Origin: a bacterium
Lineage (GTDB): Bacteria; Zixibacteria; MSB-5A5; GN15; FEB-12
Length of the DNA stretch: 64,000 nucleotides
Assembly: GCA_043811375.1 (NCBI GenBank)
Contig: JBDRNJ010000072.1
Span: forward strand, 167,053 to 231,052
Direction of reading: 5' to 3'
The notes beneath the pieces are model-generated. The model searched no databases. It was not told the DNA's origin and saw only the letters and a program-made list of their open reading frames with translations. This document shows, in pieces, positions 8,122-54,447 of this stretch (positions are counted from its first letter, which is position 1; each line of letters begins with the position of its first letter). Position numbers and translations under genes: made by a program.

Positions 8122-8163
8122 TAAGGCAATTGACAGCATAACCTTAACTGGAGAGAGAATTCC

Positions 8164-10671: not shown

Positions 10672-10755
10672 GTAACCTGACCGGGTAATATCAGACAGGC
10701 TGTCATTTCTTAATTCAAGTAACTCTCTCGCGGCTAAGTTCGCCGACAGTACTGG

Positions 10756-10783
10756 TTGACAGATCGCTATCTACCGATATACT
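10756..10783 (+). promoter_or_regulatory. Putative sigma70 promoter
   Basis: TTGACA-16 nt-TATACT, 36 nt before the 10820 start. Confidence 0.5.
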
Positions 10784-10819
10784 GTACATGGTCATACCAG
10801 TGTCATATCTGGAGGTTGT

Positions 10820-12868
10820 TTGAGACAATTGGCTGTTATCCTGGTCAGCGCCCTCTGTATCGGCCCGGTCCGGTCAGAGGTAGGCATTCATATCGAACGG
10901 GCCATGTGTGCTTATCCGGGGAACCAGATTTCGGTTGCCATCACTCTGGAGAACCCGCCGCCGGCTCTCGAGCTGGGCGGTTTTGACCTGATGTTTGTAT
11001 ATGACTCAACACTCCTGCTGCAGACCGTGACGATGGGACCACTCCTGACCGGCTGCCAGTGGGAGTATCTTGACTACATCACCTGCGGCACCTATTGTGC
11101 TCGGATTGTAGCCATAGCCGATATCGCCAACGGTTCCCATCACCCGACCTGTTATGCTGATTCCTCGGGCATACTGGCCGAGGCAACTTTCCTGGTAACC
11201 AGCGCACCGCCATCGGGCAGCGAGTTTGAGGCCATAAGATGGATGTGGACCGACTGCGGGGACAATGCCGTCTCATCACGGACCGGCGATACGCTATATG
11301 TTTCTGATGATATCTTCCATTTCGACGGCAATTATGAATACTTGATCACATTAGACACTACTCTGCCGACTCCCACCGGCGTCCCCGACGCTTGTCTTTC
11401 AGGCGGTGGCGGTATAGAACGGGCAATTGATTTCTATGGTGGCGGAATTGAAGTTATGACCACCGATACCCGGCCGCCGGTTGCCTATTGTCCGGCTGAT
11501 ATCACAGTCGGCAACGATCCCGGCCTGTGCGGAGCGACGGTCGCCTTCGAAGCAGACGCCAGCGACAACTGTCCCGGTGTTACTATTAATTGTGTACCGG
11601 CCTCGGGTACCTTCTTCTGGGCCGGTATGACCCGGGTAGGCTGCACGGCGGTCGATGCCTTAGGAAATACCGACACCTGCGGATTCTACGTAACCGTCCT
11701 TGACACCACCCGGCCGATTGCCGAATGTCCGCCCGACACCACAGTCGACAACGACTCCGGTCTGTGCGGAGCAGTGGTGACTTTTAATACTGCCGTGATT
11801 GACAACTGTCCTGCTTCCATCAACTGCACACACGCTTCCGGGGCTTTCTTTGATATCGGGACCACTGCCGTTACCTGTGTCGCTGTGGACGGTTCAACCA
11901 ACAGCGACATCTGCACTGCCGAGATCACCGTTCGCGACGCCGAACCGCCGATAGTCAACTGCCCGTCCGGCGTAACCATCGGCAATGACCCCGGACAGTG
12001 CCACGCAGTGGTAGACTTCGAGGCGTCGGCGGCGGACAATTGTCCCGGTGTGGAAGTGACGGTAACACCACCGGCGGGTTATTTGTTTGCAATCGGCACC
12101 ACCCCGGTGCAGGTGGTCGCCGTGGACGTTTCCGGGAACGCTGATACCGGCTGGTTCGATGTATTGGTGGAAGATACCGCCGGACCGGTCATCACCTGTC
12201 CCCTTGATGTCGATATCCCCAATGACAGCGGTGAGTACGGCGCCGTTGCCGGTTTTGTCCTGTCGGCTGACGACAATTGCTCGGTGGCATCGCTGCTGGC
12301 GGTGCCGCCTTCCGGTACGTTGTTTCCCAATGGTACTACATTAGTGACGATAACCGCTGCCGACCCGGCCGGCAACACCGACACCTGTGTTTTCAGTGTC
12401 ATGGTGACGCTCAATGATCCTGACGGCGATGGACGGCCGAACTGGGACGATAACTGCCCACAGAACTTTAATCCCGACCAGGTCGACACTGATAATGACG
12501 GCTGCGGCGACAGTTGCGACGTCTGCACTGATGTCGACGGCGACGGTTACGGGGACCAGGGCGTCCCCAGTGACACATGCGCTCCCGATAATTGCCCTGA
12601 CACCTACAATCCCGATCAGTCGGATGCAAATGGTGACGGTATCGGTGACGCTTGTTGTTGTTTTGCTCGCGGCGACGTGGATGGTATCGAAGATATCAAT
12701 GTCGCTGACCTGACCTGGCTGGTCGAGTATCTGTTCCGCAACGGCGTCGGGCCGCCATGTCCGAATGAAGGTGATGTCGACGGCAGTAGTTTCATCGATG
12801 TCGGTGACCTGACATACCTGGTAAACTATCTGTTCCAGGGCGGACCGGCACCGCCGGCGTGCCCGTAG
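10820..12868 (+). CDS. Secreted protein: cohesin-like N-terminal domain, four HYR repeats, TSP3-like repeats, dockerin-like domain
   Basis: Four DTxPPxxxCPxDxxxxNDxGxCGAxVxF...DNC...SGxxFxxGxTxVxxxAxD repeats; DxDGDG motifs; dockerin tail. The N-terminal ISVAITLEN...GGFDLMFVYD segment resembles a cohesin fold (inference). Confidence 0.88.
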   Translation: MRQLAVILVSALCIGPVRSEVGIHIERAMCAYPGNQISVAITLENPPPALELGGFDLMFVYDSTLLLQTVTMGPLLTGCQWEYLDYITCGTYCARIVAIADIANGSHHPTCYADSSGILAEATFLVTSAPPSGSEFEAIRWMWTDCGDNAVSSRTGDTLYVSDDIFHFDGNYEYLITLDTTLPTPTGVPDACLSGGGGIERAIDFYGGGIEVMTTDTRPPVAYCPADITVGNDPGLCGATVAFEADASDNCPGVTINCVPASGTFFWAGMTRVGCTAVDALGNTDTCGFYVTVLDTTRPIAECPPDTTVDNDSGLCGAVVTFNTAVIDNCPASINCTHASGAFFDIGTTAVTCVAVDGSTNSDICTAEITVRDAEPPIVNCPSGVTIGNDPGQCHAVVDFEASAADNCPGVEVTVTPPAGYLFAIGTTPVQVVAVDVSGNADTGWFDVLVEDTAGPVITCPLDVDIPNDSGEYGAVAGFVLSADDNCSVASLLAVPPSGTLFPNGTTLVTITAADPAGNTDTCVFSVMVTLNDPDGDGRPNWDDNCPQNFNPDQVDTDNDGCGDSCDVCTDVDGDGYGDQGVPSDTCAPDNCPDTYNPDQSDANGDGIGDACCCFARGDVDGIEDINVADLTWLVEYLFRNGVGPPCPNEGDVDGSSFIDVGDLTYLVNYLFQGGPAPPACP

Positions 12869-17932: not shown

Positions 17933-19252
17933 TTACTTAAACGCACCCCAGACCGGGTTGGAGCAGTTACCGCTTTTGGTCACGCGGCGCTGGTTACGGC
18001 CGGTGATGTCCATCGTGTACAGATCACGCGGACCGAGCCGGGTCGAAGAAAAAATGATATGTTTGCCGTCGGCTGAAAAATGCGGGTTCTCGTTGGCGCC
18101 GACTTCGGTCAAAATCCGGTAATCGTGACCGGAAGTAGCTATCGACGCAATATCGAAGCGCCCCGACTTGGTGCGGCTGACAAAAGTGATACGATGGCTG
18201 CGGTGGGACCAGACGGGGGAATCATTGTAGCTACCTTCGTAAGTAAGACGTCGAACGTTCAGTCCGTCGGCATCCATGATGTATATCTGCGGACGACCGG
18301 AGCGATCGGAGGCAAAGGCGATCTCCTGCCCGTCGGGCGACCAGGTCGGCGAGGTATCGATAGACCAGTGGTAGGTCAGACGCTTGATGATTTTCCCCTC
18401 AAGGTTAAGCACATAGATTTCGGAGTTGCCGTCGCGGGTCAGTACGCAGGCAATCTTGTTGCCGTCGGGTGAAATCGCCGGCGCCGCCACAATGCCGGGA
18501 AAACTGGTCACCCGGGAAATCTTGTCGCTGTAAACATTGACCTTGTACAGTTGCGGGTCACCATCCATATAGCTGGTGAAATAGACTTCCTCCCCGTCGG
18601 GCGTAAAAAACGGCGAAATGCTGATGGAACCGACATCGGTCAACTGGCGTTCGCTGGCGCCGTCGAAATCGGCGACAAACAATTCTTTACCCTCGCCCAC
18701 TTTTTTAGCGTAGACAATCTTGGTCCGGAAGATGCCCTGCTCGCCGGTCAGGGTGTGCACGATTTCATTGGCGACATCGTGTCCCAGCTCGCGCCAGGAG
18801 GTGCGGTGCTGCTCCAGTGTTCCCCGGGCAAACTGCTGCTTGCGGACGGTATCAAACAGTCGCCAGCGGACGCGCATGTTGGAGCCGGGGAACTCCGCCT
18901 CAAGTCTGACAAGATAGGTTGCCCCCAATCGCTGCCAGCCCAGCAGGTCCAGATCTGCAATCTCGTAGACTCTCATATAAAAGGTGTCAATCGGCACCAA
19001 CTCGAAGTCGGCGTAGAAATCAACATCGAACTGCACGATGCGGGTGGTGTAGGCCATCAGGGTGGAATCGTCCGGCCCGATGTAACGGCTACCTATATAA
19101 CGCATCTCGTCGACGCCAATCAGCGTCGCTTGCACATCGCCGGTACGCAGTGTGTCAAAGAAGACGTTGCGGACGTTTTCCTGCTGGGCGGTCACAACAC
19201 CAACCGGGAACAGGGAGATTGCCAGTAACAATGCAGTCATTCTAAGAAGCAT
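17933..19252 (-). CDS. tolB: Tol-Pal beta-propeller protein TolB
   Basis: Signal peptide; EIVHTLTGEQGIFRTKIVY; PD40 repeats (PAISPDG, PTWSPDG...FASDRSGRPQIY). Confidence 0.93.
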   Translation of the reverse strand: MLLRMTALLLAISLFPVGVVTAQQENVRNVFFDTLRTGDVQATLIGVDEMRYIGSRYIGPDDSTLMAYTTRIVQFDVDFYADFELVPIDTFYMRVYEIADLDLLGWQRLGATYLVRLEAEFPGSNMRVRWRLFDTVRKQQFARGTLEQHRTSWRELGHDVANEIVHTLTGEQGIFRTKIVYAKKVGEGKELFVADFDGASERQLTDVGSISISPFFTPDGEEVYFTSYMDGDPQLYKVNVYSDKISRVTSFPGIVAAPAISPDGNKIACVLTRDGNSEIYVLNLEGKIIKRLTYHWSIDTSPTWSPDGQEIAFASDRSGRPQIYIMDADGLNVRRLTYEGSYNDSPVWSHRSHRITFVSRTKSGRFDIASIATSGHDYRILTEVGANENPHFSADGKHIIFSSTRLGPRDLYTMDITGRNQRRVTKSGNCSNPVWGAFK

Positions 19253-19253
19253 T

Positions 19254-19937
19254 TCAGTATCCTGAAGCGTATTTGAAGGGAAGAGTTATACCGATGATTT
19301 CGTCCCGAAACTCACGCGGCAATGGCGGAAACGGCGACGAACTCTGTACCGCCTGCAAGCAGGCATCGTCAAAGGCGCCAAAACCCGATGACGTCTCCAC
19401 CCGCAGCTCGATCAGACGCCCGGAACGAATCACCTGGAAGTATACCACGCAGACCAGCGTAGCGTCGGAACCGACCGGATTGCGCCAGTTGCCGGCGATC
19501 TTATTAAAAGCCTGCGTGAACCAGTAGGGATAGTCAAAGGAAGCATTGTCGATAGTCGCTCCCTGAAAGGGTGAACCACCGCCGGTGGCTGATGATTCGA
19601 TCTCCTTCTCACCGGCTCCGGCATCGGACGGCACCTGGCCGGTCGTTTTGGGCTTGGGCTTTTTTGGCTCTTCCTTTTTCTTCGGTTCTGATTCGATAAC
19701 GGCCTTGGCGGCGGTGGTGGGGGCGTCGATGGGGATATCCGGCAACACTTCCAACATCGGCTTGGGAACTGTAATAGGAGTCGGTTCCGACGGCGTTATC
19801 TCCGGAAGCGATGTCAACGATACCCGAATCACTTCACCGAAATCCTTCTGTCTCTTCAGATCGAAGGGCGCCGATACTACCGTAGCCATTATGATGGCCG
19901 CGTGCAGACACAGAGACAGGACTATGTCGCGCTTCAT
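19254..19937 (-). CDS. tolA: TolA/TonB-family energy transducer
   Basis: N-terminal TM with SLCLH, Pro/Lys-rich linker, TonB_C-like domain (SSGFGAFDDAC...PFPPLP); lies between tolR and tolB. Confidence 0.8.
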   Translation of the reverse strand: MKRDIVLSLCLHAAIIMATVVSAPFDLKRQKDFGEVIRVSLTSLPEITPSEPTPITVPKPMLEVLPDIPIDAPTTAAKAVIESEPKKKEEPKKPKPKTTGQVPSDAGAGEKEIESSATGGGSPFQGATIDNASFDYPYWFTQAFNKIAGNWRNPVGSDATLVCVVYFQVIRSGRLIELRVETSSGFGAFDDACLQAVQSSSPFPPLPREFRDEIIGITLPFKYASGY

Positions 19938-19940
19938 GTA

Positions 19941-20378
19941 TCACCGTCCCGTTTGCCGCCGGTGGCCTTGCTCATGCTGCTCGGTCACCAGACCGATCGA
20001 CTCAATACCCATATCTTTTAACCGTCCGATAACATCGATGGCAACACCATACACTACCGCCGAGTCGCCTCGCAGGTAAACGCTGGAGGTGTTCTTGCTC
20101 CGCATCTCACGTTTGAGAGCTTCCTCGAAACCATCTTGTCGAGCCCAGACGTCGTTGATATAAATGCCGCCCCTGGCATCGATGGTCACTACCACTCCTT
20201 CAGCTTCCTCTTCAATCGCGGCCGCCTTGGTCTTGGGCAGGTTGACCTCGATACCCGACTGCAACAAGGGAGCGGATATCATGAAGATAATCAGCAGCAC
20301 CAGGACCACGTCTACCAGGTTGGCGATATTGATATCCGCCATTGCCCGGTACTGCCGTCGCACACGGCGCTTTTTCAT
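19941..20378 (-). CDS. tolR: ExbD/TolR biopolymer transport protein
   Basis: INIANLVDVVLVLLIIFMISAP and LRGDSAVVYG motifs. Confidence 0.9.
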   Translation of the reverse strand: MKKRRVRRQYRAMADINIANLVDVVLVLLIIFMISAPLLQSGIEVNLPKTKAAAIEEEAEGVVVTIDARGGIYINDVWARQDGFEEALKREMRSKNTSSVYLRGDSAVVYGVAIDVIGRLKDMGIESIGLVTEQHEQGHRRQTGR

Positions 20379-21091
20379 CGGCTTTCCTTTTTAGCTCGCA
20401 CCAGAAACTCCAGGATGAAATTGCTGCCGTAATCGTTGAGGAACTTCATCTTATTGTTAGCCCAGTTAAAGGCGACCACAGCCGGGATAGCCGCGCCCAG
20501 ACCGACGATGGTGGCCAGCAGCGCTTCAGCAATTCCCGGAGCCACCACGGCCAGCGAAGCCGAACCGCGCTCCCCGATCGCCCAGAACGAGTCCATGATG
20601 CCCACGACGGTGCCCAGCAACCCCATAAACGGAGCGGCACTGGCGGTGGCGGCCAGAAAAATAATTTTTTGCTCCAGCCGACCCATTTGTTCCACCAGCG
20701 CCTTTTCCATAGTCATTTCGATAATCTCAAAATCGTCATCATCGATCGGACGGTGACTTTCCTGCAGCGCTCCCCCTTCGTTCTTCAGTTCGTGCAGTTC
20801 ACGAAGTTCGTTATAACCGGCTGTATAAATCCCGGCCAGAGGTGAGTCTCGGTGAGACTTGGCCTGACCCAGCGACTCCGCCAGTTGGCGCGAGCGCCTG
20901 AAGGTCTGCTGAAATATCCGGTTATCGCTTTCGACATTCCGGAACTGCCGCCACTTGTGAAAAATGATTACCCAGCAAACAATCGACATGAAAGTCAGTG
21001 CCAGCAGAATGAACAGCCCGAAAGCCGATGTCTGTCCGATGATCTGCCAGATCGATCCGGTGAAAATACTCAGTATCATAACATTATCCAT
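20375..21091 (-). CDS. tolQ: MotA/TolQ/ExbB proton channel protein
   Basis: APFMGLLGTVVGIM and VAPGIAEALLATIVGLGAAIPAV. Start is uncertain (21091 or 21127). Confidence 0.92.
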   Translation of the reverse strand: MDNVMILSIFTGSIWQIIGQTSAFGLFILLALTFMSIVCWVIIFHKWRQFRNVESDNRIFQQTFRRSRQLAESLGQAKSHRDSPLAGIYTAGYNELRELHELKNEGGALQESHRPIDDDDFEIIEMTMEKALVEQMGRLEQKIIFLAATASAAPFMGLLGTVVGIMDSFWAIGERGSASLAVVAPGIAEALLATIVGLGAAIPAVVAFNWANNKMKFLNDYGSNFILEFLVRAKKESR

Positions 21092-21311
21092 ACCTGTTGT
21101 ACGCCTGATGCGGTCGTTAGTTTGCACTCAGCCGAACCGACGGATGACCGGATCAAACCGAATTGCGGCTCGAAAATAGGCGGCCGATCGGTGCCCGTCA
21201 ACAAAAAGCGATAAAACAGGCGTTTACCTCAATTTATGGTTGACTCAACAGCAGACCCGGCGCATCATCGGGCTGTTCACCTGAGTTGAAAATGTTGATG
21301 AAAGGAGTGAC

Positions 21312-21527
21312 ATGAAAAGAATACTGGTTGGCTCGATGCTGATCGTACTGATCCTGGCAGCCGGTTGCGGCCAGAAACAGGACAGTCAGCCCGCAGACAA
21401 GGTCCCCACCGAAGTTAAACAGGCTGAAAGTATGGACAGCACTCGTCTGGATTCGGCTGCCATCGATTCTACCGTAGTGGATTCGATAGCTACGGAGACC
21501 ACCGAAGAGCCTCCCGACAGCATATAG
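21312..21527 (+). CDS. Small acidic lipoprotein
   Basis: RBS AAGGAG, lipobox LAAG-C, DS-rich low-complexity tail. Confidence 0.8.
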   Translation: MKRILVGSMLIVLILAAGCGQKQDSQPADKVPTEVKQAESMDSTRLDSAAIDSTVVDSIATETTEEPPDSI

Positions 21528-21544
21528 TACGACTCACTGCAAAC

Positions 21545-21581
21545 AAAAAAAGACCTCCCGTGACATTCACGGGAGGTCTTT
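21545..21581. terminator. Intrinsic terminator between convergent genes
   Basis: AAAAAAAGACCTCCCGTGA-CAT-TCACGGGAGGTCTTT. Confidence 0.85.
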
Positions 21582-21609
21582 CATAGCCGGTTGTAACCGT
21601 GTAATTATC

Positions 21610-22740
21610 TCAGCTTTCGATCATTTCCACGTTGGCACGCGGGACTACTGCTCGGTTGCCGTCTTCGAATTCAACTTCCAGAACACGAGCTTTCGATTCG
21701 GATTCCAGCTTCTGTAACGGCGACGGTAAATCCACTACCTGGCCCAAACGTCCAAAGTAGGGATGCCGGATAACCCGCACCGGGGACCCTACGGCCAGTC
21801 CTGAGATCGTTACCTCTTTCACATCTGTCAGCGCCTCCTGGTCAACGACCAGAGGAATAACCACCTCCGGGCGAATCACGCCGGCTCTGATCTGTGTCGC
21901 CCCGTTGATACAGGCCATCTGCCCCTGGTGTGCTTTGAGCAGATCAAACGTCTTACCCGCCATAGAAATCTGTCCAAAACCCTCGGTGACAACCAGAGTT
22001 ATCCCGATGCCCTCCGAACCGGTGATGGCCACGCCGATGTCATACCCCAGGAAATCCCGCAGATCCCGGTCGTCAAGACCGCCGACGACAATCCCGCGCA
22101 CGCCCATTTCAATCGCTTTCTTCGTAGCCGACGCCGTCACCAACGAACCGCCGACAATAACCTTACCGGCAAGGTCCGGTCGGATCAGTTTGTCATCCAG
22201 TACTTCACTGTTGTCAGATGTCACCACTTCCACTATCCCCGAGGTTTCACCGCCGATGCCAAAAATACCCTGTACAAAACTGCCTAAGGTTGAGACAACC
22301 ACACCCTCTCCCGGCAGGACCTCGGTGACCATGCCCCGCAGGTAGGCTTTCACCTCAACCGGAATCGGTAAACCGCGCAACAGCACTTGACCGGTAACAT
22401 TAGAAACCGACTCAACTTTGCCGGTGACTGATGCCTTACAGGTAGTAGACCATCTCTTGATGAGCGGGAACTTCTTGACGGCGATAACCTCTCCCTCTTC
22501 GATGGTATCCCCGGCCTTCTTGACCATGAACTCGTGGATATCTTCCGGGGGTATACTCAGCTTGTTGGCCACGTTGATCGGGATAATGTTGCCCGGCAAC
22601 TCGGTTCGGGCCACAACGTCATCGGGATTCACCTCATCGCCGACCTTAACCACTACGTCACCCTTGAGAGGCAGGATACGGCTCTTGTTAATCTGCAGCC
22701 GCTCAGTGACTTTTAGTCCGGGAGTGTATGCGTGGGCCAT
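21610..22740 (-). CDS. Uncharacterised soluble protein with lipoyl/biotinyl-like beta repeats and C-terminal KOW-like motif
   Basis: VKVGDEVNPDDVVA and KKAGDTIEEGEVIA hybrid-barrel-like motifs; LAVGSPVRVIRHPYFGRLGQV KOW-like motif; RBS AGGAG; co-oriented downstream of the GlmL-like gene. Confidence 0.85.
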   Translation of the reverse strand: MAHAYTPGLKVTERLQINKSRILPLKGDVVVKVGDEVNPDDVVARTELPGNIIPINVANKLSIPPEDIHEFMVKKAGDTIEEGEVIAVKKFPLIKRWSTTCKASVTGKVESVSNVTGQVLLRGLPIPVEVKAYLRGMVTEVLPGEGVVVSTLGSFVQGIFGIGGETSGIVEVVTSDNSEVLDDKLIRPDLAGKVIVGGSLVTASATKKAIEMGVRGIVVGGLDDRDLRDFLGYDIGVAITGSEGIGITLVVTEGFGQISMAGKTFDLLKAHQGQMACINGATQIRAGVIRPEVVIPLVVDQEALTDVKEVTISGLAVGSPVRVIRHPYFGRLGQVVDLPSPLQKLESESKARVLEVEFEDGNRAVVPRANVEMIES

Positions 22741-22764
22741 ATGGCTCCTTCCTGTAACTTGTAA

Positions 22765-23517
22765 CTATTCGTCACGCCTTCCGGCGGCGGCGCAAAGCGC
22801 CAGCAATATCAACACCACCGCCACACCGGCGAAGAGAAATATCGTATTCGACTTCTTCCCCTCGTCCTCATTATCTTCCAGGTCGGCTATGCGCACCTGT
22901 TCCCGGGGAAAGGCGTTCTCGATGTTTTCGGTCGAAAATGACGCCACTATTTGCAGAAATCGAAGCTGACTTTCTTGAAATATCGAATCCGGTGCATAGC
23001 AGTAAAATGTGGCGATACCTCTCTCGTAGAATTTCATCATCAGCAGGTTCTTTTTCATCACCTGCTGTTCATCGACGATGTCACTGATAATGGCTACCGT
23101 CTGCATGAGAGTATCATAGCAGGGTACTTCCAGCTCCGGATCGGACAAAAACTCCGCCAGGTCCTGGTGCCTGACCCGATTACCAAAAGTGCCCACCAGG
23201 TCAATCAGCACTGAGTCAATCTGCCACTCACGTAGTTCGCCGACAGTATCAACACTGAGTATCAAATACTCCCGGGAAAAAAACTGGGGAGCATCCTTGA
23301 CGGCAAAAACAGCATCATAATCAAGGGCTATCCGTGCGGTGTCGCTGCTGCGCAGAAAAGCATCAACCAGCCAGTAATCAACCTGGGCCCATTCCTGCGG
23401 GTAGGTGATATGGAACTCCCCCTTGAGACTGACATAGGTCTGGTCCTGGGCCGGCACAGTCGTCGCCAGAATCGCCACCAGCAATACGACTCTAATTAAT
23501 GTTTTAGCAGTTATCAT
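22765..23517 (-). CDS. Hypothetical exported protein with C-terminal membrane anchor
   Basis: Signal peptide and C-terminal hydrophobic helix followed by RR; tightly spaced in the operon. Confidence 0.8.
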   Translation of the reverse strand: MITAKTLIRVVLLVAILATTVPAQDQTYVSLKGEFHITYPQEWAQVDYWLVDAFLRSSDTARIALDYDAVFAVKDAPQFFSREYLILSVDTVGELREWQIDSVLIDLVGTFGNRVRHQDLAEFLSDPELEVPCYDTLMQTVAIISDIVDEQQVMKKNLLMMKFYERGIATFYCYAPDSIFQESQLRFLQIVASFSTENIENAFPREQVRIADLEDNEDEGKKSNTIFLFAGVAVVLILLALCAAAGRRDE

Positions 23518-23526
23518 TGTTCACCA

Positions 23527-25380
23527 TTATAGCCTGTCGGAGGGATAAACATTCAGTTCTGTCATCCATTGCTTCAGATTGGTTACCCGTTCGGCATCAC
23601 TCAACGTCGACAGGTCAAACGGACGCCCCCGACCATCAAGAATCACACCGATCACTCCGCCGTGCAACTCCTTCTCGACACGAGAACCGCGGCCGGCACC
23701 AACATCGAAAGCCCGCTCCGGTTCAAACACCGCCCGGGCTGTTTCCGGCAGGCCGTTGTCCTTGAAGCCCAGCTCAAACCGCTTCATTTCCAAGCGGTTG
23801 AGCGTTCCGGTCACCGTCCCCGACGGCAACTCAATGGTGTACTTCATCACCGATCCCGGTTTCTTGATTGTTCCCGCCGGTGCCACACAGGTACCCAGAT
23901 GAATCAGACAATCTTTGACAAACACTTCCGTGGCCGCCCGTTTGTGCACCTCGGTCAACACACCCAGTTGCGGCATCATAAAGATGGAGTCAACCGCCAG
24001 ACGGGTGACACCTTCCGGCAGGAAAGCATCGATCATCATCAGAGCCGACTGCTGGCGACGGGGCGCGTGCGACAGTACTCCGCCCGAGCCGATCAGCATG
24101 TCCAGCGACATCATATTTACAATAGTAGCGCCGGAAGACGACTGCTCGAAAGCATCCGCGATGGTTCGCTGCTGCTGAATGCCCTTGAGAACCGTGGCAA
24201 AACTCTTGTGCTGGACAAGGGCCAGCCGCAGGGCTTCCTTGGCGATGGCCTGCTCAAAGATCAACTCTTCCATTGACTGAGGGATTGTCGTCGGGCGGAC
24301 CATCTTGTTCTTGACCCGGTTTCTCAGATCACGCTCGTCCATTTCAAACGGCACCCAGCGCATCACCATCGGCAGGGTCGCTTCCAAAAACACATTGGAT
24401 ATCGAGTAGGACATGCCTAAGTTGGCCGATACGGTCCGGTTGAAGACCGGTGTTTTTCCATCGGGGCGAAAAACCGAGAAGACGTCAGTGGTGGCTCCGC
24501 CGATATCCACGCCCATCGCCTCGATACCATACTGCTCGGCAATCGTTTGAATGATCAGGCCAACCGCTCCCGGAGTCGGCATGATCGGGGCATCGGTCCA
24601 CGACATCAGCTTCTTGTATCCGGGCGCCTGAGCCATAACATGTTCCATAAACAGTTCGTGGATCTCATCCCGCGCCGGACCCAGGTTTTCTCGTTCCAGA
24701 ACCGGCCGCAGATTGTCGACCGTTTTCAGATCTACCTTACCTTTTAGAGTCTCCTCAACACTGCCGGCAGCATTTTTGTTACCGGCGAAGATGACCGGTA
24801 ACTGGTAGCTGGAACCCAGCCGCGGTCGCGGGTCGGCAGCGGCGACCAGTTCGGCTATCTCGACCACGTGCGTGGTGGTGCCGCCGTCGATACCGCCCGA
24901 TAACAGAATCATGTCCGGGCGGAGATGGCGAATGCGTTCTATCTGCTGGTGCGGCAGGCGCTTATCGTTGGAAGCAATAACATCCATAACGATGGCGCCG
25001 GCGCCCAGCGCCGCCCGCTCGGCCGACTCAGCGGTCATCGAGCGTACCACCCCGGCTACCATCATCTGCAAACCACCGCCGGCTGACGATGTTGAGATGT
25101 AGATATCGGAACCGACCTTGTCCTTACAGGGAGTAATGATCTTGCCCTCGTCGTCCAGCAGCTTGCGACCGGAGAGCTCTTCGACCTCGGCCACGGCATT
25201 AAGCACGCCCATAGTGACGTCTTCGAATGGGGCTTCCACCGTTGTCGGGGCTTCACCACGGACCACCAGCCGGTATTCGCCGTCGTGGTATTCGATCAGA
25301 ATCGCTTTGGTGGTGGTGGAACCACAGTCAGTCGCCAGAATTACCTTGATATCATCGGGATTTTCAAACTTGGCCATCAA
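23527..25380 (-). CDS. GlmL/MutL (glutamate mutase L)-like ASKHA-superfamily ATPase
   Basis: Phosphate-1 ATDCGSTTTKA, SSAGGGLQM, AALGAGA, LSGGIDGG, phosphate-2 VDIGGATTDVFS, RTVSANLGM, IGSGGVLSH. Confidence 0.88.
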   Translation of the reverse strand: MMAKFENPDDIKVILATDCGSTTTKAILIEYHDGEYRLVVRGEAPTTVEAPFEDVTMGVLNAVAEVEELSGRKLLDDEGKIITPCKDKVGSDIYISTSSAGGGLQMMVAGVVRSMTAESAERAALGAGAIVMDVIASNDKRLPHQQIERIRHLRPDMILLSGGIDGGTTTHVVEIAELVAAADPRPRLGSSYQLPVIFAGNKNAAGSVEETLKGKVDLKTVDNLRPVLERENLGPARDEIHELFMEHVMAQAPGYKKLMSWTDAPIMPTPGAVGLIIQTIAEQYGIEAMGVDIGGATTDVFSVFRPDGKTPVFNRTVSANLGMSYSISNVFLEATLPMVMRWVPFEMDERDLRNRVKNKMVRPTTIPQSMEELIFEQAIAKEALRLALVQHKSFATVLKGIQQQRTIADAFEQSSSGATIVNMMSLDMLIGSGGVLSHAPRRQQSALMMIDAFLPEGVTRLAVDSIFMMPQLGVLTEVHKRAATEVFVKDCLIHLGTCVAPAGTIKKPGSVMKYTIELPSGTVTGTLNRLEMKRFELGFKDNGLPETARAVFEPERAFDVGAGRGSRVEKELHGGVIGVILDGRGRPFDLSTLSDAERVTNLKQWMTELNVYPSDRL

Positions 25381-25804: not shown

Positions 25805-27100
25805 TTAACACGGTGCTGGTGACGGGCCACCCTGGAACAGGTACGCTACAAGATATGTCAGGTCACCGACATCAATACTGCTGCTGCCATCCACGTCGGC
25901 TTCTTCCGGGCACGGCGGTGATGGGCCGCCCTGGAAGAGATAAGCGACCTGGTTTGTCAAATCGCCAACGTCAATGGCGCCGCTACGGTCAACATCGCCC
26001 CGTATGTCACAACAATACAGAATGGGAAAACAGTGGGGACCATCCCAAGAAGGTGCGAATTTCTTAAAGTATGACGAACCGTGTACGACTGTGGCCCATA
26101 TCCAGTCACCACCGGGCGGATACCAGGATGAATCAAGACAAATCTCACCCCCGGAATACATCCTGTCTATCGGCCCAATGGTTATAGTATGAGTTACAGA
26201 ATCGAATCCTACCGGCAATCCGTAGTTTATCCAGCTCATATAACCCAACAAGGCCGTGTCCGAGTCGGAACCGGTTACACCGATGGATCTGTAGATGTGT
26301 TCGACATCAAAGAAACTATCAATGGCAATAACGGTAGCAACAGTCATACCGGACCAGGTAGCGCCAGTGGGGGAATATACCCGAAACCCATTTGTCAGCC
26401 CGCGGATTCGATCGGGAAGGTTGTTGAACATGCGAATGTGAAAAACTATTTCCTTATCAGTGAGAACAGTATCGGGGCCGAGAAGTCCATCAACATGATC
26501 CAGGCTGATCACTCCCCCGGTGAGCGGTGGGCAATCAGGAGGACCGTCGCAGTTAAGTAAAGGACTTCCCACGAAACGGCTCCACGTATAAACAGGATCA
26601 TAGACATTGACCCCTTCGCAGCCGTCCGTGTTTGCGGCATACATACATGCAGGTGACAGTCCGCCACGCCACAGGAAATTACTGATGAAAAACAAGTCGC
26701 CTGGACCAACAATGTCATTGCCATCCGCATCACCGCACTTCACTTGCTCGCATGAATCTCCAATGCCATCACCATCGGTGTCGGTCTGGTCAGAATTGGC
26801 AAACCCCGGGCAGTTGTCCTCCGGGCAGGTATTCGATGGAAAACCCGGATCACCAAAGCCGTCACCATCCTGATCGGTGCATTCGTCACAGGGGTTACCA
26901 ATACCGTCACCATCGGCATCATACTGTTCCGGGTTCCAATAGTTCGGGCAGTTGTCAAGCGAGTCTTCGATACCATCACCATCGCTATCACTTCGTTGAC
27001 TGGTATACTGGTCTGCTGCTGCCTGCACAACCGTATCTTTGGTGGTGACAGAGAGGAGGAAAATCATTGCTGTGATTATAAGGAAAACAATCGTTAGCAT
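25805..27100 (-). CDS. Secreted protein: TSP3-like repeats, internal dockerin-like domain, beta-sandwich, C-terminal dockerin-like domain
   Basis: DSDGDGIEDSLDNCP repeats; CGDADGNDIVGPGDL; tail GDVDRSGAIDVGDLT...YLFQGGPSPAPC. Confidence 0.88.
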   Translation of the reverse strand: MLTIVFLIITAMIFLLSVTTKDTVVQAAADQYTSQRSDSDGDGIEDSLDNCPNYWNPEQYDADGDGIGNPCDECTDQDGDGFGDPGFPSNTCPEDNCPGFANSDQTDTDGDGIGDSCEQVKCGDADGNDIVGPGDLFFISNFLWRGGLSPACMYAANTDGCEGVNVYDPVYTWSRFVGSPLLNCDGPPDCPPLTGGVISLDHVDGLLGPDTVLTDKEIVFHIRMFNNLPDRIRGLTNGFRVYSPTGATWSGMTVATVIAIDSFFDVEHIYRSIGVTGSDSDTALLGYMSWINYGLPVGFDSVTHTITIGPIDRMYSGGEICLDSSWYPPGGDWIWATVVHGSSYFKKFAPSWDGPHCFPILYCCDIRGDVDRSGAIDVGDLTNQVAYLFQGGPSPPCPEEADVDGSSSIDVGDLTYLVAYLFQGGPSPAPC

Positions 27101-27389
27101 AATAATATCACCCCTAATTTGATTGGTTGCTAATAGATCCCAAAACTGTTTGCTCCAGACCTATTCTACCATAGCAATATAAGTTCTGCTTACGCTCTTG
27201 TCCAGTTAAATATGGAGCCTTAAATGAAAACGAAAAGAGTCCCCCTTTTTTGTGGTAGCAGCTCAATTAACTCAATACTGAAAGTTTTTAGTTTGTTTCG
27301 CGACTCAGCCTCGGTATTATTTTCTTTCTTGCAAAATGTAAGTTTAAATTAACTGACGAAAGATCACTAACATAAGAGGAGAGACCACA

Positions 27390-28742
27390 ATGAAGAATCG
27401 TACTTTCTACTTCTGGATATTACCAATGATACTTGTTGTAATGTTTATGGTGCAATCCCGTGGTGACAATCCTGCGGATAGCGCCTACTTCAGTTGGGCA
27501 GATTCTGGCTATGTTACACCAGTGAGACACAACCAATACAGCTGTCATTCCTGTCAGACAATGTCTGGTTGCGCTATAATTGAAAGCCAGATCCTATTGC
27601 AACTTGGCAAGGCAGATTCAAATGTGAACCTATCCGAACAGTATATCGTATCATGCTGGAATACTGATACATTCTGTTTATCAATCATTAACTTCGATTC
27701 GGCCATAATACCCGGCATACCTACGGAGGATTGCCTCCCGTGGCAAATAGACAGTGATTGTATTAATATGTACAATTGTAACTTCGATTTCTGTGATGAT
27801 ACGTGTGATTATCCTTATGCCTGGGCCAGTTTCATCGATTCTACCGGAACCTCGACAGTAAATGTAGGTTCTTTGAAGGAGGCTATTGTTGTGCACGGAC
27901 CAATCAGGGTTATGGGCTACTTTGACAGTTGTTCCTTGGCTAGTTTTGATCCGGACACGGGCGTATTTAACTCCCAACCGTTTGGGAAAGACACAGTCGG
28001 CTACGGACACTTCTATGTGATTTATGGGTGGAATGATACCTGCACCGCTTTTACTCCACCGAAAGGTCCGTACCCCTGCTGGCTTGCCAAGAACTCCTGG
28101 GGCACAAGTTGGGGCGAGCCGGGGCCGGATAGTGTAGGCGAAGCCCCCGGATGCTTCAAGCTTCACCAAGACACTAGTATGTTCAGAATATCTGCCGACT
28201 GGGTGGATTGGACACCCCTGGGCAAACCGACCCTGTGTGGTCCCTTTGGCTACACGGCTTACGATCCATCCGACAGCTCAGTCAGATTTGTCTGGCAAAC
28301 GCCGGGTGACGCCTCTGAGGACGCGGACAGCAACGATTACCGTCTGAATATTCTGGATGCGTCAGACAGTATTTTCTACTCCGCTATCGTGGCGGACACA
28401 TACATTGTTCTCGATAATTTGGTCTTTGATTCTACATATACCTGGTTTGTACGTGCTTTTGTGGAGGGTCGCACCAGCTCACGGGTTAGTGATTGGTCAG
28501 CCGGTGAGGTTACAGTGCTGTCCCTACCCTGCTGCTCTGTCCCCGGTGATTGTAATCATGATGCTGGGGTAAATGTAGGGGATATTGCGTATCTGACCCA
28601 GTATGTTCATTACAATGGCTTGTACCTCGCTTGCTGGGAGGAGGCTGATGTTAACGATGATGACGAAGTGGATGCCGACGATATATCATATTTGGTGGCC
28701 TATCTATTCCAGAGCGGCCCGGCTCCGGCGGCCTGCCCGTGA
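27390..28742 (+). CDS. Secreted papain-family (C1A) cysteine peptidase with FnIII-like and dockerin-like domains
   Basis: VTPVRHNQYSCHSCQ (oxyanion Gln, catalytic Cys), LSEQYIVSC, GHFYVIYGW (His), KNSWGTSWGE (Asn); RBS AGGAG. Confidence 0.88.
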   Translation: MKNRTFYFWILPMILVVMFMVQSRGDNPADSAYFSWADSGYVTPVRHNQYSCHSCQTMSGCAIIESQILLQLGKADSNVNLSEQYIVSCWNTDTFCLSIINFDSAIIPGIPTEDCLPWQIDSDCINMYNCNFDFCDDTCDYPYAWASFIDSTGTSTVNVGSLKEAIVVHGPIRVMGYFDSCSLASFDPDTGVFNSQPFGKDTVGYGHFYVIYGWNDTCTAFTPPKGPYPCWLAKNSWGTSWGEPGPDSVGEAPGCFKLHQDTSMFRISADWVDWTPLGKPTLCGPFGYTAYDPSDSSVRFVWQTPGDASEDADSNDYRLNILDASDSIFYSAIVADTYIVLDNLVFDSTYTWFVRAFVEGRTSSRVSDWSAGEVTVLSLPCCSVPGDCNHDAGVNVGDIAYLTQYVHYNGLYLACWEEADVNDDDEVDADDISYLVAYLFQSGPAPAACP

Positions 28743-31929: not shown

Positions 31930-32565
31930 ATGGGCTTCTGGGATACATTTGGAGTCTGGCTGGCAGCCGCGCTGACTATCGGTATTATCTCTTTTCTGTA
32001 CCGGGACAACGCCTTTTACAAGGTGTGCGAAAGCATCTTTGTCGGGATATCGGCCGGTTACTGGTTTATTACTTACTACTGGGATAACCTGTATAAGAAG
32101 TTCTATGTCCAGGTGACCGACCCTAACAACCCGGAGTGGTACGTGCCGTGGGTCGGCTTTGTTCTGGGAACATTGATGCTGACACGGCTGATCGGCAAGA
32201 TCGGCTGGCTGTCACGCTGGCCGCTGGCGTTTATCGTGGGTGGTGTTGCCGGCCTCTACATGATGACCTATTTCGTATCCAACGCCATGAACCAGGTAGC
32301 AGCTACAATTGTGCCGGTTCTTACCGGCAGCTGGACTGATATAATCGCCAGTTCGATGATAGCCATCGGTACCTTCTGCGGGCTGGTTTATTTCTTCTTC
32401 TCCAAAGCACATACCGGGGTTTTTGGCGGCGCGGCACGAGTGGGTATCTGGTTTTTGATGGTCACTTTCGGAGCGTCGTTCGGCTACACCGTCATGAGCC
32501 GTATGTCGCTGATGCTGGGGAGACTGGACTTCCTGTTCGGAACCTGGCTGGGAATGATCCCATAG
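31930..32565 (+). CDS. Module gene D1: polytopic membrane protein
   Basis: SFLYRDNAFYK...VGISAGY; SRWPLAF; YFFFS; FGASFGYTVMSR. Confidence 0.9.
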   Translation: MGFWDTFGVWLAAALTIGIISFLYRDNAFYKVCESIFVGISAGYWFITYYWDNLYKKFYVQVTDPNNPEWYVPWVGFVLGTLMLTRLIGKIGWLSRWPLAFIVGGVAGLYMMTYFVSNAMNQVAATIVPVLTGSWTDIIASSMIAIGTFCGLVYFFFSKAHTGVFGGAARVGIWFLMVTFGASFGYTVMSRMSLMLGRLDFLFGTWLGMIP

Positions 32566-33827
32566 TGTTGCCGCTCCTGCCGACAGTAGCGCGTTGTAAA
32601 AGTACTCTTTTCATATCGGCTGTTATCACCCTGATCCTGTTGGCGGCAGTTGCATCCGCACAGACAGAGCCCACTGACGGCGACAGCACAAAAATCGAGG
32701 CTGATTCTGTAACTGTTGCAGTGGCTCCTGTCACATCATTGATCGCTTCCGACCACAAGTACGATGCGGGCGAACAAATCGACCTGTCCTGGGTGCCGTC
32801 TATCGATGACCGACTGGTCGACGGCAAGGTAACCGGTTACTCCGTCTTCCGGATAATTGAGGGTGGTGAACCGGAAATTATCGCAGAACTCGCACCCGGA
32901 AGCAACTCATATAATGACAGGGACCTTGAGTCCGGCACCGAGTACAGCTACTATGTGGTGGCGCTCTCTGAAAGTTCTCTGGCCATGTCGGTGTCGACGG
33001 CACAGATAGCACCGAAGCCGGAGTGGCTGAATCTCTCACGCGGATACCTGTTTCTGATCGCTTTGTTCATCTCGGCCGCGGTGATATACTTTGTAGAAAG
33101 CGCCAAGAGAGGCAAGAAGTTGTTTGTACGCCGAATAGCCGGTCTGGAGGCGATTGACGATGCCGTCGGGCGCGCCACCGAGATGGGCCGACCGGTACTT
33201 TTTATCCCCGGCATTAGCGACATGGATGATGTCCAGACCCTGGCGGCACTGACCATTCTGGGGCGGGTGTCCCGCACTATAGCCGATTACGATACCAAAA
33301 TCTTCATGCCGGTGGCACGGTCACTGGTAATGACAGCCGCTCGCGAAACTATCAAGACATCTTACCAGGCAGCCGGGCATCCCGATGCCTACAGTGACGA
33401 TATGGTCAACTATGTCACCGACGAGCAATTCGGTTATGTAGCGGCCGTGGATGGTCTCATGGTACGTGAGAAACCGGCGACGGTGTTCCTGCTGGGGGCG
33501 TTTTTTGCCGAATCGTTGATCCTGGCCGAGACCGGCAACTCGATTGGCGCCATCCAGATTGCCGGTACTGCTCGACCGGCCCAGTTGCCGTTCTTTATTG
33601 CCGCCTGCGACTTTACCCTGATCGGCGAAGAACTGTTTGCGGCTTCGGCCTACCTGTCCGGCGAACCGCGTATGCTGGGTTCCCTCAAAGGTCAGGATGT
33701 GGGTAAAGCAATTGCCGTGGCGGCTATCTTTTTGGGCGTCCTGACAATCACTATCGCCGAAGCCTGGGATTCAGAATCCATGCAGGCTGTTTACGACTGG
33801 CTGAGCGAGATATTCTCGAGTAACTGA
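32565..33827 (+). CDS. Module gene A2: FnIII-domain membrane protein (DUF6754-like)
   Basis: RRIAGLEAIDDAVGRATEMGR; QLPFFIAACDFTLIGEELFAASAYLS; paralog of A1. Confidence 0.88.
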   Translation: MLPLLPTVARCKSTLFISAVITLILLAAVASAQTEPTDGDSTKIEADSVTVAVAPVTSLIASDHKYDAGEQIDLSWVPSIDDRLVDGKVTGYSVFRIIEGGEPEIIAELAPGSNSYNDRDLESGTEYSYYVVALSESSLAMSVSTAQIAPKPEWLNLSRGYLFLIALFISAAVIYFVESAKRGKKLFVRRIAGLEAIDDAVGRATEMGRPVLFIPGISDMDDVQTLAALTILGRVSRTIADYDTKIFMPVARSLVMTAARETIKTSYQAAGHPDAYSDDMVNYVTDEQFGYVAAVDGLMVREKPATVFLLGAFFAESLILAETGNSIGAIQIAGTARPAQLPFFIAACDFTLIGEELFAASAYLSGEPRMLGSLKGQDVGKAIAVAAIFLGVLTITIAEAWDSESMQAVYDWLSEIFSSN

Positions 33828-33835
33828 GTAGACTG

Positions 33836-34513
33836 ATGAGACGATTGATACCACTTTGGATAACGTTTATTGTCGGCACGGTGCTGATCATCTCGGTGTT
33901 TATCCCCCCCTTCCAGGATATGGAACGGACATTCACTCTGTTCTTCGATATTATAGCCGTATTTGCCTTTTTCTTAGGCGGCGGCAATCTGTTGCGCGTC
34001 CACATCAATAAGTTACAGCAACGCAAGAAAGACTGGGGCTTCTCTATTGTCACCGTCGCCGGCTTCCTGACCATGCTCACCGTCGGTTTGCTCAAGCTGG
34101 GCAACCCGGGTGACATATCCACCGCCGTCGACACGCCGGGTTCACTGTTTTATGGCATATTCGACACGGTGCTGGTGCCGCTGCAATCGACCATGTATTC
34201 GCTGCTGGCGTTTTTCGTCGCTTCGGCGTCCTACCGCGCTTTCCGCGCCAAGAACCGGGAAGCCACCATGCTGCTGATCGCGGCGTTCATCATTTTGCTC
34301 GGCCGAACACCCTTTGGCGCTATGTTGACCGCCTGGGTACCGGACTCCTTCTCGCTGGCTCAGATTCCCAACCTGGCCATCTGGATTATGAATTCCCCCA
34401 ACTTAGCCGGACAGCGGGCTATCATTATCGGTATCGGGTTAGGTGTGATCTCGATGTCGCTGCGGTTGATCCTGGGCATCGAGCGCTCTTATCTGGGGGA
34501 AGATCGTGGTTAA
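33836..34513 (+). CDS. Module gene B2: polytopic membrane protein
   Basis: TMYSLLAFFVASASYRAFRAKN; paralog of B1. Confidence 0.9.
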   Translation: MRRLIPLWITFIVGTVLIISVFIPPFQDMERTFTLFFDIIAVFAFFLGGGNLLRVHINKLQQRKKDWGFSIVTVAGFLTMLTVGLLKLGNPGDISTAVDTPGSLFYGIFDTVLVPLQSTMYSLLAFFVASASYRAFRAKNREATMLLIAAFIILLGRTPFGAMLTAWVPDSFSLAQIPNLAIWIMNSPNLAGQRAIIIGIGLGVISMSLRLILGIERSYLGEDRG

Positions 34514-35420
34514 TATCGGCACCATAGTCTCGCTGATTATCATCTTTGGCGGCCTGTTGTGGCTTTTGGTGCGGTCCGTCAAGGGTAAGGAAGTCGACCG
34601 CCGGATCATCTTTGTCTTCATTTTAGTATCGGTGGCGGCACCGATATTGTTCCCCATCACTTTCGAGGAACATGCCACGCCGGTTGTGAAAGGGTTGTTT
34701 GATCGCATCGAAGACCTGCCGCCTGATTCCTACGTGCTGATATCATTTGATTATGACCCGGCTATGGCGCCGGAAGTGCAGCCGATGGCCAACGCCCTGT
34801 CTCGCCATTGCCTGAATAAGGGACACAAAGTTATCTTCATGTGCCTGTGGGCCACCGGTCAGTCGCTGTTGATGAGTACACTGGAGAACATTATCCTGCC
34901 CGATTTCCCGGAACTGGTCAACGGTGTTGACTATATCAACCTGGGATTCAAAGCGGGCAACGAGGGTGTTCTTAATGTTATCGTATCCGACTTCAAGAAG
35001 ATGTTTCCCACCGACGTCAACGGCGTTCCCCTCGATAGCGTCCCGATATTTAACAGGATAGGCTCCTGTGCCGACCTTGATCTAATTATCGCATTAGGCG
35101 GCGGTCGCCCCGGCCCCAAGGAATGGGTGCTGTTTGTAGGTGATCCGGCCGACGTGCCTATCGGCGTTGGTGTTGCGGCGGTGGTGGCGCCCCAGTTGTA
35201 TCCCTACTATCCGCGGCAGGTTATCGGCATCCTGGGCGGTGTCAAGGGCGCCGCTGAGTATGAATCGGAGTTGAGCCATCGGCATCCCAGGTTTGCCGAC
35301 ATGGACCAACCGGGACTGCGTATGATGGGTCCGCAAACGCTGGCCCATATCGTCATCATGGCGTTTATCGTGATCGGCAACATCACCTTCTTCCGCACCC
35401 GCAGAAAGGATTCTAGCTGA
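34506..35420 (+). CDS. Module gene C2: membrane-anchored alpha/beta-domain protein
   Basis: FDYDPAMAPEVQPM; YINLGFKAG; GGVKGAAEYE; paralog of C1. Confidence 0.9.
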   Translation: MVNIGTIVSLIIIFGGLLWLLVRSVKGKEVDRRIIFVFILVSVAAPILFPITFEEHATPVVKGLFDRIEDLPPDSYVLISFDYDPAMAPEVQPMANALSRHCLNKGHKVIFMCLWATGQSLLMSTLENIILPDFPELVNGVDYINLGFKAGNEGVLNVIVSDFKKMFPTDVNGVPLDSVPIFNRIGSCADLDLIIALGGGRPGPKEWVLFVGDPADVPIGVGVAAVVAPQLYPYYPRQVIGILGGVKGAAEYESELSHRHPRFADMDQPGLRMMGPQTLAHIVIMAFIVIGNITFFRTRRKDSS

Positions 35421-36244
35421 TGCGCCGCTCGACATACATCGCCGTTGGTATTGTCAGCGCCCTGTTTATCATTATCTGGGTGCTGCGGGCCATGTCGCTT
35501 GAGGGCGAGGTCGACAATAACATCTCACGAGCATTCCTAGTGACGGTATCAGCCTTTCTGACCCTGGCGATATTTTCGTTCCTGTATAAAGACAACCCGT
35601 TTTATAAGTTTGCCGAGCACCTCTTTGTGGGGGTTTCGGCTGCCTACTGGATGGTCCAGGGTTTCTGGTCCACGATTGTCGGCAATCTCTTTCCGCGCCT
35701 GTCGGATGGGTTAGCGGGATTCTTCCAGCAGCCTTATCAGCCCAGCAGTTTCAATTTCGTTTTCTGGGTTCCGGTTATTCTGGGCTTGCTGCTGCTGATG
35801 CGGTTGTTGCCAAAGGGCGGCTGGCTGTCCCGCTGGCCGCTGGCCTTCATTGTTGGCACTACCGCCGGATTGAATTTCATCCGCTATTTGCGCTCTGATT
35901 TCATTGTGCAGGTGTCCTCAACATTTGTTCCCCTGCTCGGCCAGGAACCGCACCAGTGGCAGGGTCTTGGTAATTTCCTTTCCAACCTCAACCTGTCGGC
36001 CTCGGGACAACTGGTGGCTATAGTATCCAACTGGATCATATTCGTAGGTGTCATTTGCGGCATTATTTACTTTTTCTTCTCCAAAGAGCACAAGGGCGCC
36101 TTTGGAGCCGCTTCAAGATTAGGTATCTGGATCCTTATGATTACATTCGGCGCTTCTTTCGGATATACCGTTATGGGTCGTATTTCATTGCTGGTGGGGC
36201 GCCTGACGTTTTTGTTTAGAGACTGGTTGGGAGTGATAAGTTAA
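35420..36244 (+). CDS. Module gene D2: polytopic membrane protein
   Basis: SFLYKDNPFYKFAEHLFVG; FGASFGYTVMGR; paralog of D1. Confidence 0.9.
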   Translation: MRRSTYIAVGIVSALFIIIWVLRAMSLEGEVDNNISRAFLVTVSAFLTLAIFSFLYKDNPFYKFAEHLFVGVSAAYWMVQGFWSTIVGNLFPRLSDGLAGFFQQPYQPSSFNFVFWVPVILGLLLLMRLLPKGGWLSRWPLAFIVGTTAGLNFIRYLRSDFIVQVSSTFVPLLGQEPHQWQGLGNFLSNLNLSASGQLVAIVSNWIIFVGVICGIIYFFFSKEHKGAFGAASRLGIWILMITFGASFGYTVMGRISLLVGRLTFLFRDWLGVIS

Positions 36245-37795: not shown

Positions 37796-37808
37796 GAGGA
37801 GAGAATAG

Positions 37809-38468: not shown

Positions 38469-38480
38469 GGAGGAACTGGC

Positions 38481-39356: not shown

Positions 39357-39362
39357 CCTGAT

Positions 39363-54397: not shown

Positions 54398-54418
54398 CTG
54401 TGTCCTTTCTGTGCTGTT

Positions 54419-54447
54419 AATATACACCAAATAGACTTATCAGTCAA
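54419..54447 (-). promoter_or_regulatory. Putative sigma70 promoter of the LVIVD gene
   Basis: Minus strand TTGACT-17 nt-TATATT. Confidence 0.55.

Follow-up and report, generated by a model that had tools for sequence, protein, structure and literature searches.

A GlmL-family ATP-binding protein of Zixibacteria, its swivel-domain partner, and the DUF6754 membrane modules that accompany them

Among ASKHA (actin/Hsp70-fold) ATP-binding proteins, GlmL (NF040745) and Or-4 (NF040744) are accessory factors of methylaspartate/glutamate mutase and ornithine aminomutase, and are encoded next to glmS/glmE or oraE, respectively. A figure legend of PMC4682846 calls GlmL a reactivating chaperone. The glycerol/diol dehydratase reactivase is, in an excerpt of PMC7674605, an Hsp70-like ATPase joined to a swivel domain, with ATP used for subunit swapping and cofactor release. 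Here we describe a long GlmL/MutL-family gene, designated G, from a bacterium of the phylum Zixibacteria (GCA_043811375.1). It lies in a stretch of 64,000 nucleotides (contig JBDRNJ010000072.1, positions 167,053 to 231,052, forward strand; hereafter, the window), which forms the terminal part of contig C72 in a genome that is 95% complete. The neighbours of G were not mutase genes but a partner gene, H, and membrane modules of four genes, A to D (ABCD). We conclude with high confidence that G, H, a further gene E, and A to D constitute one conserved seven-gene system. Its genes, with the accessory insert between G and H, are as follows (window coordinates unless a contig is given):

23527-25380, minus strand: gene G, long-form GlmL/MutL-family ASKHA ATP-binding protein, 617 amino acids (aa), PF13941, single copy in the genome
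22765-23517, minus strand: gene for a 250-aa exported protein with an N-terminal signal-like segment, a C-terminal hydrophobic membrane anchor and a basic tail; accessory insert between G and H
21610-22740, minus strand: gene H, 376 aa, partner of G by its model, fold matches, fusions to G and complex score
28970-32565, plus strand: membrane module 1, with A1 (FN3-type ectodomain, transmembrane helix, DUF6754, transmembrane helix), B1, C1 and D1
32565-36244, plus strand: membrane module 2, with A2 (domain model, pLDDT 87), B2, C2 and D2
36275-40154, plus strand: membrane module 3, with A3, B3, C3 and D3
C39:39484-39963, another contig of this genome: gene E, the seventh gene, about 120 aa, without a Pfam match

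The motifs DCGSTTTK and DIGGATTD, reported as intact in the original prediction made for this locus, were present in G, and the residues of the phosphate-1, phosphate-2, and adenosine motifs (D18/G20, D292/G294, and G433) were 98–100% conserved among 127 aligned homologues. By motif criteria, G is thus classified as an ASKHA ATPase and is predicted to hydrolyze ATP. The protein matched the Pfam model of the MutL/GlmL superfamily, PF13941, from end to end (model positions 1–450, E 1e-127, 426.9 bits vs. a gathering threshold of 27). It remained below the cut-offs of the GlmL equivalog NF040745 (236 bits vs. 475; a true copy scores 646), the Or-4 equivalog NF040744 (219.8 bits vs. 600), and TIGR01319 (168 bits vs. 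204); true copies pass. G shares with GlmL and Or-4 the ASKHA core and most motifs, with 26–32% identity to mutase-linked copies. Six mutase-linked GlmL/Or-4 proteins from annotated records, about 460 aa each, were split from the G clade by one branch, with FastTree support of 1.0 in a tree of 156 rows and SH-aLRT of 100 in a tree of 34 rows; all other rows were picked by their similarity to G, so the trees show the separation and not the full family. The long G clade carries RTVSANxG vs. RTVEGDxG in the mutase-linked six, a clade-specific pair N358-K359, and an extra C-terminal domain of about 120 aa. Judged from its sequence, G is not an orthologue of GlmL or Or-4. PDB sequence searches yielded no true relative of G, DdrA included.

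The mutase content of the genome agreed with this placement. No B12-binding domain was encoded on the contig, in line with the earlier observation that the window lacks mutase and B12-binding genes. The genome search for mutase genes recommended in the original prediction found neither the glutamate mutase E subunit nor lysine/ornithine aminomutase; G is accordingly not encoded between glmS and glmE, no GlmE having been found in the 95%-complete genome. Methylmalonyl-CoA mutase and a MeaB-like gene (motif match) were present.

Across the phylum, PF13941 was detected in 120 and DUF6754, which marks gene A, in all 121 of the genomes searched; the lone PF13941 miss (genome G085) is explained by an assembly gap, since the last 88 residues of G follow a run of N. 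Each genome carried one G-H pair and two to six DUF6754 copies. The glutamate-mutase E domain exceeded its cut-off in 7 of the 121 genomes and the aminomutase family PF09043 in none, while the same search was positive in 59 of 91 Cloacimonadota genomes, which served as the control. In Cloacimonadota, 84 of the 91 genomes had both PF13941 and DUF6754, six had neither, and one (G195) had G only; all 26 genomes with G and without the aminomutase carried DUF6754. Here G-H and ABCD were mostly unlinked. H was not found in the two double-negative genomes examined, and in one genome (G180), G, H, and DUF6754 were all detected and the mutase searches returned neither enzyme. In a third phylum, DUF6754 was present in 21 of 21 genomes, and two loci (L116 and L119) form one run, A-B-C-D-E-G-(x)-H-A-B-C-D.

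Gene neighbourhoods pointed the same way. Of 80 loci picked by H, 76 had G and 35 had A at a distance of no more than 10 kb, with A directly divergent from G in 22 and on the same strand in the rest; three of the four genomes behind the loci lacking G carry it elsewhere, and none was found in the fourth (G217). A further 80 metagenome loci were collected with a distant G clade as the sole query. H was downstream of G in 68 of 68 of them, D directly upstream of G in 52 of 52 with enough sequence, and the order A-B-C-D was kept in 20 of 20; a B12-binding motif was found in none of the 80. Loci that we call Anaerolineae-type (cluster mates of two of the ten proteins looked up carry Anaerolineae/Chloroflexi names) form a single operon in the order E-A-B-C-D-G-H. 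Gene E precedes G or A in most lineages, and one E-G fusion is known. No redox or metabolic gene was a steady neighbour across the related loci. The system is near-universal in the three phyla sampled, and the data support the association of the G clade with ABCD and not with glutamate or ornithine mutases. The two patterns that the original prediction had named as contrary to it, a G clade accompanying these mutases or ABCD commonly occurring without G, were not seen in the genomes searched; instead, G stands on a branch separate from mutase-linked GlmL and co-occurs with ABCD.

Two side observations concern relatives of these genes. KOW-less G-H fusions occur as second copies, stand-alone in six Zixibacteria (L082-L087) and commonly in Cloacimonadota; in L091 and L092, such a fusion is the gene immediately upstream of A (L098, L099, and L102 are also listed). 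The 4.3-kb loci L088-L090 encode a 645-aa protein in which a B12-binding domain is fused to glutamate mutase E; its gene adjoins an asparagine-synthase-like gene, and these loci contain no GlmL.

The model of H (pLDDT 82) contained barrel-sandwich barrels resembling the N-terminal domain of NqrA/RnfC (Z 7.5), a swivel domain at residues 153–297, and a C-terminal KOW/SH3 barrel. The lipoyl-like barrels and KOW motif originally noticed in the 376-aa protein are therefore borne out by the model; its main domain, the swivel, had been missed. The swivel domain matched enzyme I (Z 10.4, root-mean-square deviation (rmsd) 2.5, 99 residues aligned) and, at rank 39, the diol-dehydratase reactivase 2D0O (Z 6.8, rmsd 3.4, 109 aligned). 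The phospho-histidine of the swivel carriers enzyme I and PPDK was missing, the site being methionine by motif register, and a histidine within 10 residues of the EGFG motif occurred in only 7 of 92 H copies. The lysine at the hairpin tip of biotinyl/lipoyl domains was not conserved either; hairpin sequences vary and the tip is hydrophobic. With these key residues missing, H was ruled out as a phosphocarrier or a biotin/lipoyl carrier. Its conserved motifs were EGFG and TQIRAG, which includes R285: all 92 stand-alone copies, a set with some redundancy, have QIRAG, and all 38 complete fusions keep the arginine. The PDB sequence search gave no real relative of H.

G and H behave as a pair. Of 150 representative G homologues, 41 exceeded 800 aa, and 39 of these were fusions of G with H that mostly lack the KOW domain and are distributed over several branches of the tree. 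In the other two, G comes after an ectodomain and a transmembrane helix; one, from a Bacillota genome, has an M1 peptidase domain. In P0129, P0124, P0131, and P0183, the part in front of G is either an ectodomain (M1-peptidase-like or TSP3) followed by a membrane helix or a lone helix; the N-terminal domain of P0183 we take to be similar to a GntR helix-turn-helix. Modelled together, G and H scored 0.78, compared with 0.00 for the best of three controls, with at least 92% contact agreement between runs and a partner pLDDT of at least 85; the mark applied to this score is reached by 116 of 157 solved pairs and 2 of 215 mismatched pairs, counts that are only roughly valid with the alignment used. 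In the modelled interface, residues 352–372 of G, including N358 and K359, face the EGFG motif and the KOW barrel of H; G295 and A319 of G and residues 282–285 of H are also listed, the output not specifying contact between these. A sequence search of the PDB returned no similar complex. On the strength of the model, G and H very probably form a complex.

Since the swivel domain of H lacks the phospho-histidine and contains a conserved arginine, G and H together resemble the diol-dehydratase reactivase. DdrA/GdrA (2D0O, 1NBW) have the ATPase-plus-swivel layout of G-H, which are naturally fused. They differ in having no sequence match to G, in lacking the barrel and KOW domains that H adds, and in their client: no dehydratase-type client is encoded in the operon, and the client of G-H appears to be a membrane complex. 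By this analogy, the simplest reading would be that an ATPase module of the reactivase type has been recruited to serve a membrane complex.

The conserved part of A was a helix-Rossmann-helix unit; the ectodomains on A vary from none to about 700 aa. Its fold matched sirtuins (Z 10.7), KtrC (Z 10.1), transhydrogenase domain III (4J16, Z 9.6, rmsd 3.4, 138 aligned), and RCK domains. Transhydrogenase domain III is, like A, a membrane-tethered Rossmann domain, with a score in the generic range and no sequence match to A. In A, the mean number of lysines plus arginines was 4.7 after the first helix and 2.5 before the last; in C, it was 3.2 before the first helix, 1.3 after it, and 4.1 in the tail. 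From these residues, the domain of A is predicted to lie inside and that of C outside, with B starting inside and D outside, in opposite orientations. RnfA and RnfE are likewise two oppositely oriented six-helix subunits; the Rnf/Nqr complexes also share the NqrA/RnfC-like barrel with H, again with a fold score in the generic range and no sequence match. B and D contained few cysteines, and conserved polar residues were located in or near membrane segments (E34 in D; H265 and N276 in C). No cofactor, Fe-S, flavin, or NADP motif was found.

Proteins A to D had no Pfam, NCBIfam, or PDB match above threshold to any transporter family (ABC, ECF, or secondary carriers), and PDB sequence searches gave no real relatives of any of the four. 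In the ESM Atlas, A matched only DUF6754 itself and C nothing. Natural fusions of membrane subunits were represented by a single 571-aa match. A defence system was rejected, as PADLOC gave no match for nine proteins, and so was viral carriage, as no DUF6754 relatives were found in viral contigs.

The genome encoded single copies of G and H together with five ABCD modules, of which three are in the window, one is on C4, and one is on C44. The earlier proposal that one ATPase/adaptor pair serves three modules therefore holds for the single pair and needs correction in the number of modules. A1, A2, and A3 belong to old paralogue classes that recur across genomes (A1/A2 group with a Cloacimonadota class at 0.95), which suggests specialized modules. 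In loci L120-L123, modules have extra copies of A or C, e.g., A-A-B-C-D-C, which may mean that a single B/D core can take alternative subunits.

Several membrane modules facing one shared energizing module are familiar from ECF and ABC importers. The arrangement of one ATPase module per several membrane modules is alike here, with an ASKHA in place of an ABC ATPase. That G-H acts directly on ABCD is somewhat probable. Import is the job that we favour for ABCD, though tentatively, and an equally tentative proposal is that the G-H pair is the shared ATP-driven energizer of a new importer class, powering all five modules. By analogy, we infer docking of G-H, ATP hydrolysis, and transport as follows. 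G-H would dock on A at its inward-facing Rossmann domain, with the conserved Arg285 loop of H triggering hydrolysis by G. A solute caught outside by C would pass via B/D to A and be released inside; the ATP cycle would detach a ligand or partner to which A binds tightly, or reset the module, which would make the passage one-way. Each paralogous module may handle a different solute. Three observations fit the energizer mechanism: a single pair stands against several modules, the domains of A and C face opposite sides, and some G fusions are tethered to the membrane.

Several results weigh against this proposal. The Rossmann domain of A is generic: Z scores fall only from 10.7 to 8.8 at rank 50, and since the matches form a flat plateau, they name a general fold and no ligand. 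Homology of A with C and of B with D was not detected by hhalign, and our own profile alignment was borderline (score 23.4 vs. null maxima of 23.6–23.7). The resemblance of H to DdrA is weak, as its rank shows, and no fusion of G or H to A-D occurred among the 150 homologues. Rfam revealed no riboswitch near the system genes in 13 sources. The six Cloacimonadota double losses all come from small genomes (1.5–1.6 Mb) that also lack the aminomutase; possibly the product of one event, they do not discriminate alone. Genome G195 contains G, H, and the aminomutase, with ABCD not found, and genome G217 contains H, with G not found. In the Anaerolineae-type clade, the ATPase motifs of G and the arginine of H are partly degenerate; C has a long tail on the inside, with an N-terminal zinc ribbon in 29 of 30 cases and long acidic PDWL repeats; and in 42 of 51 loci, the gene after H encodes an N-terminal helix, a Thr/Pro linker, and an LPxTG-like anchor. 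Such a tail together with such a neighbour suits a scaffold better than an importer.

These Anaerolineae-type features favour the main alternative reading, in which G-H is an actin-fold switch with a role similar to that of PilM/FtsA that organizes or senses the cell surface, or handles membrane-anchored surface proteins, via ABCD, with no import taking place. The near-universal single copy of G in the phylum, the variable ectodomains of A, and the C-terminally anchored exported gene within the operon studied here would also fit. We consider it unlikely nevertheless: the opposed soluble domains, the opposed orientation of B and D, and the polar membrane residues suit a translocation path, and the anchored neighbour genes of different phyla share no homology, with many loci lacking such a gene altogether. 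Less likely still, ABCD could be a membrane enzyme or ion pump carrying a nucleotide-type cofactor on A, with G-H-E acting as its maturase or reactivase and not as a motor. The matches of A to sirtuins, transhydrogenase domain III, and RCK domains and the NqrA/RnfC-like barrels of H speak for it, as does the description of GlmL as a reactivating chaperone in the legend cited above (PMC4682846). They are countered by the lack of a cofactor motif, the few cysteines of B and D, the failure of PDB sequence searches to return a relative, and the lack of a steady redox or metabolic neighbour.

The database name of the family invites the reading that G is an ordinary accessory factor of a B12-dependent mutase, either methylmalonyl-CoA mutase or another, and that its proximity to ABCD is incidental. 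It draws on the occurrence of methylmalonyl-CoA mutase in 121 of 121 genomes of the phylum and in four of the five Cloacimonadota examined, and on genome G195, with its G and aminomutase and no ABCD found. This reading is largely refuted and very improbable. G fails three family cut-offs and is separated from mutase-linked proteins by a branch with SH-aLRT of 100; glutamate mutase and aminomutase are rare or missing in the phylum (7 and 0 of 121, vs. 59 of 91 in the control); DUF6754 is present in every one of the 26 Cloacimonadota that have G without the aminomutase, and genome G180 has G with neither mutase found; and the genome has its own MeaB-like gene, while the 80 metagenome operon loci have no B12-binding motif. 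A mutase as the client of G was rejected on the genome and phylum mutase profiles.

Vitamin B12 was also considered as a substrate of the proposed importer. All genomes of the phylum have methylmalonyl-CoA mutase; CbiC was detected in 0 and the FecCD/BtuC permease in 2 of the 121. The only cobalamin riboswitch of the genome lies ahead of two genes, one for an outer-membrane receptor-like protein and the other for a propeller protein, and no permease gene adjoins them. The EcfT family was present in 113 of the 121 genomes and missing from the two with FecCD; this distribution suggests that uptake usually takes the ECF route, and it weakens B12 import as the main job of the system, as does the lack of a cobalamin riboswitch near ABCD. 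Neither FecCD nor EcfT was found in six genomes (G004, G026, G037, G038, G081, and G120). An EcfT-family gene (G000:C36:22951-23754; loci L217 and L218) was located beside truA in the three loci read, with no adjoining ECF ATPase gene. In its most far-reaching form, the proposal would be a new class of primary active transporter, in which an actin-fold ATPase of the B12-reactivase type with a partner arginine finger is shared by inverted-topology four-subunit translocases, core to whole uncultured phyla, and the phylum might import its cobalamin through one of the modules; we regard this as speculative and unlikely to hold in full.

All three open reading frames (ORFs) of the operon (G, the 250-aa gene, and H) were confirmed on the minus strand, separated by 9 bases between G and the 250-aa gene and by 24 bases between the latter and H. 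G starts with TTG, and an in-frame ATG follows directly at 25377. The 250-aa protein had no Pfam or NCBIfam match; its gene is fast-evolving, with 42 homologues found, and occurs in 47 of 80 related loci, the slot being empty or occupied by unrelated genes elsewhere. It was therefore rejected as a core subunit. Of the operon originally outlined, all three genes are there; the 250-aa gene does not belong to the core, and gene E, on its separate contig, had escaped notice. The coordinates confirm that modules 1–3, whose first gene starts at 28970, are divergent from the G operon, with only two dockerin genes between. The remaining features bordering the operon are as follows:

21548-21582, minus strand: terminator-like hairpin closing the G-250aa-H unit, with a 16-pair stem and a T run (consensus match only)
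25805-28742, no strand assigned: two dockerin-bearing genes for secreted proteins between G and A1 (Pfam dockerin, TSP3, and peptidase C1), outside the system

The dockerin genes are inserts here, because 22 of the 80 related loci have A and G directly divergent, and no stretch of comparable size separates the two genes there. Further terminator-like hairpins flank the unit at 25761-25732 and 25711-25685; the region contains 12 terminator-like sites vs. 7.1 ± 3.1 in shuffles, which is weak on its own. A 71-aa ORF with a signal peptide and a lipobox-like LAAGC (21312-21527, plus strand) is convergent with H. Beyond it lie tolQ-tolR-tolA/tonB-tolB genes (17933-21127, minus strand), which recur in 28–32 of the 80 related loci and probably reflect the synteny of one lineage. 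Many secreted proteins with a terminal dockerin-like module are encoded in the window (5722-12868, 25805-28742, 52226-54430, and 62670-63536).

The genes described here specify a real and widespread machine, which is apparently undescribed: in a search chiefly of freely accessible papers, no paper on DUF6754, PF13941, TIGR01319, or the system was found, apart from work on FumD for GlmL. To our knowledge, no kind of transporter has been described in which an ATPase of the ASKHA fold powers a solute translocase. The seven-gene machine is directly testable via the modelled G-H interface and residues D18, D292, and K359 of G and F255 and R285 of H. The database label "glutamate mutase L" hides the system and wrongly suggests glutamate fermentation. 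Being near-universal in three phyla and gathered in one operon in Anaerolineae, the system belongs to the core biology of abundant sediment and digester bacteria.

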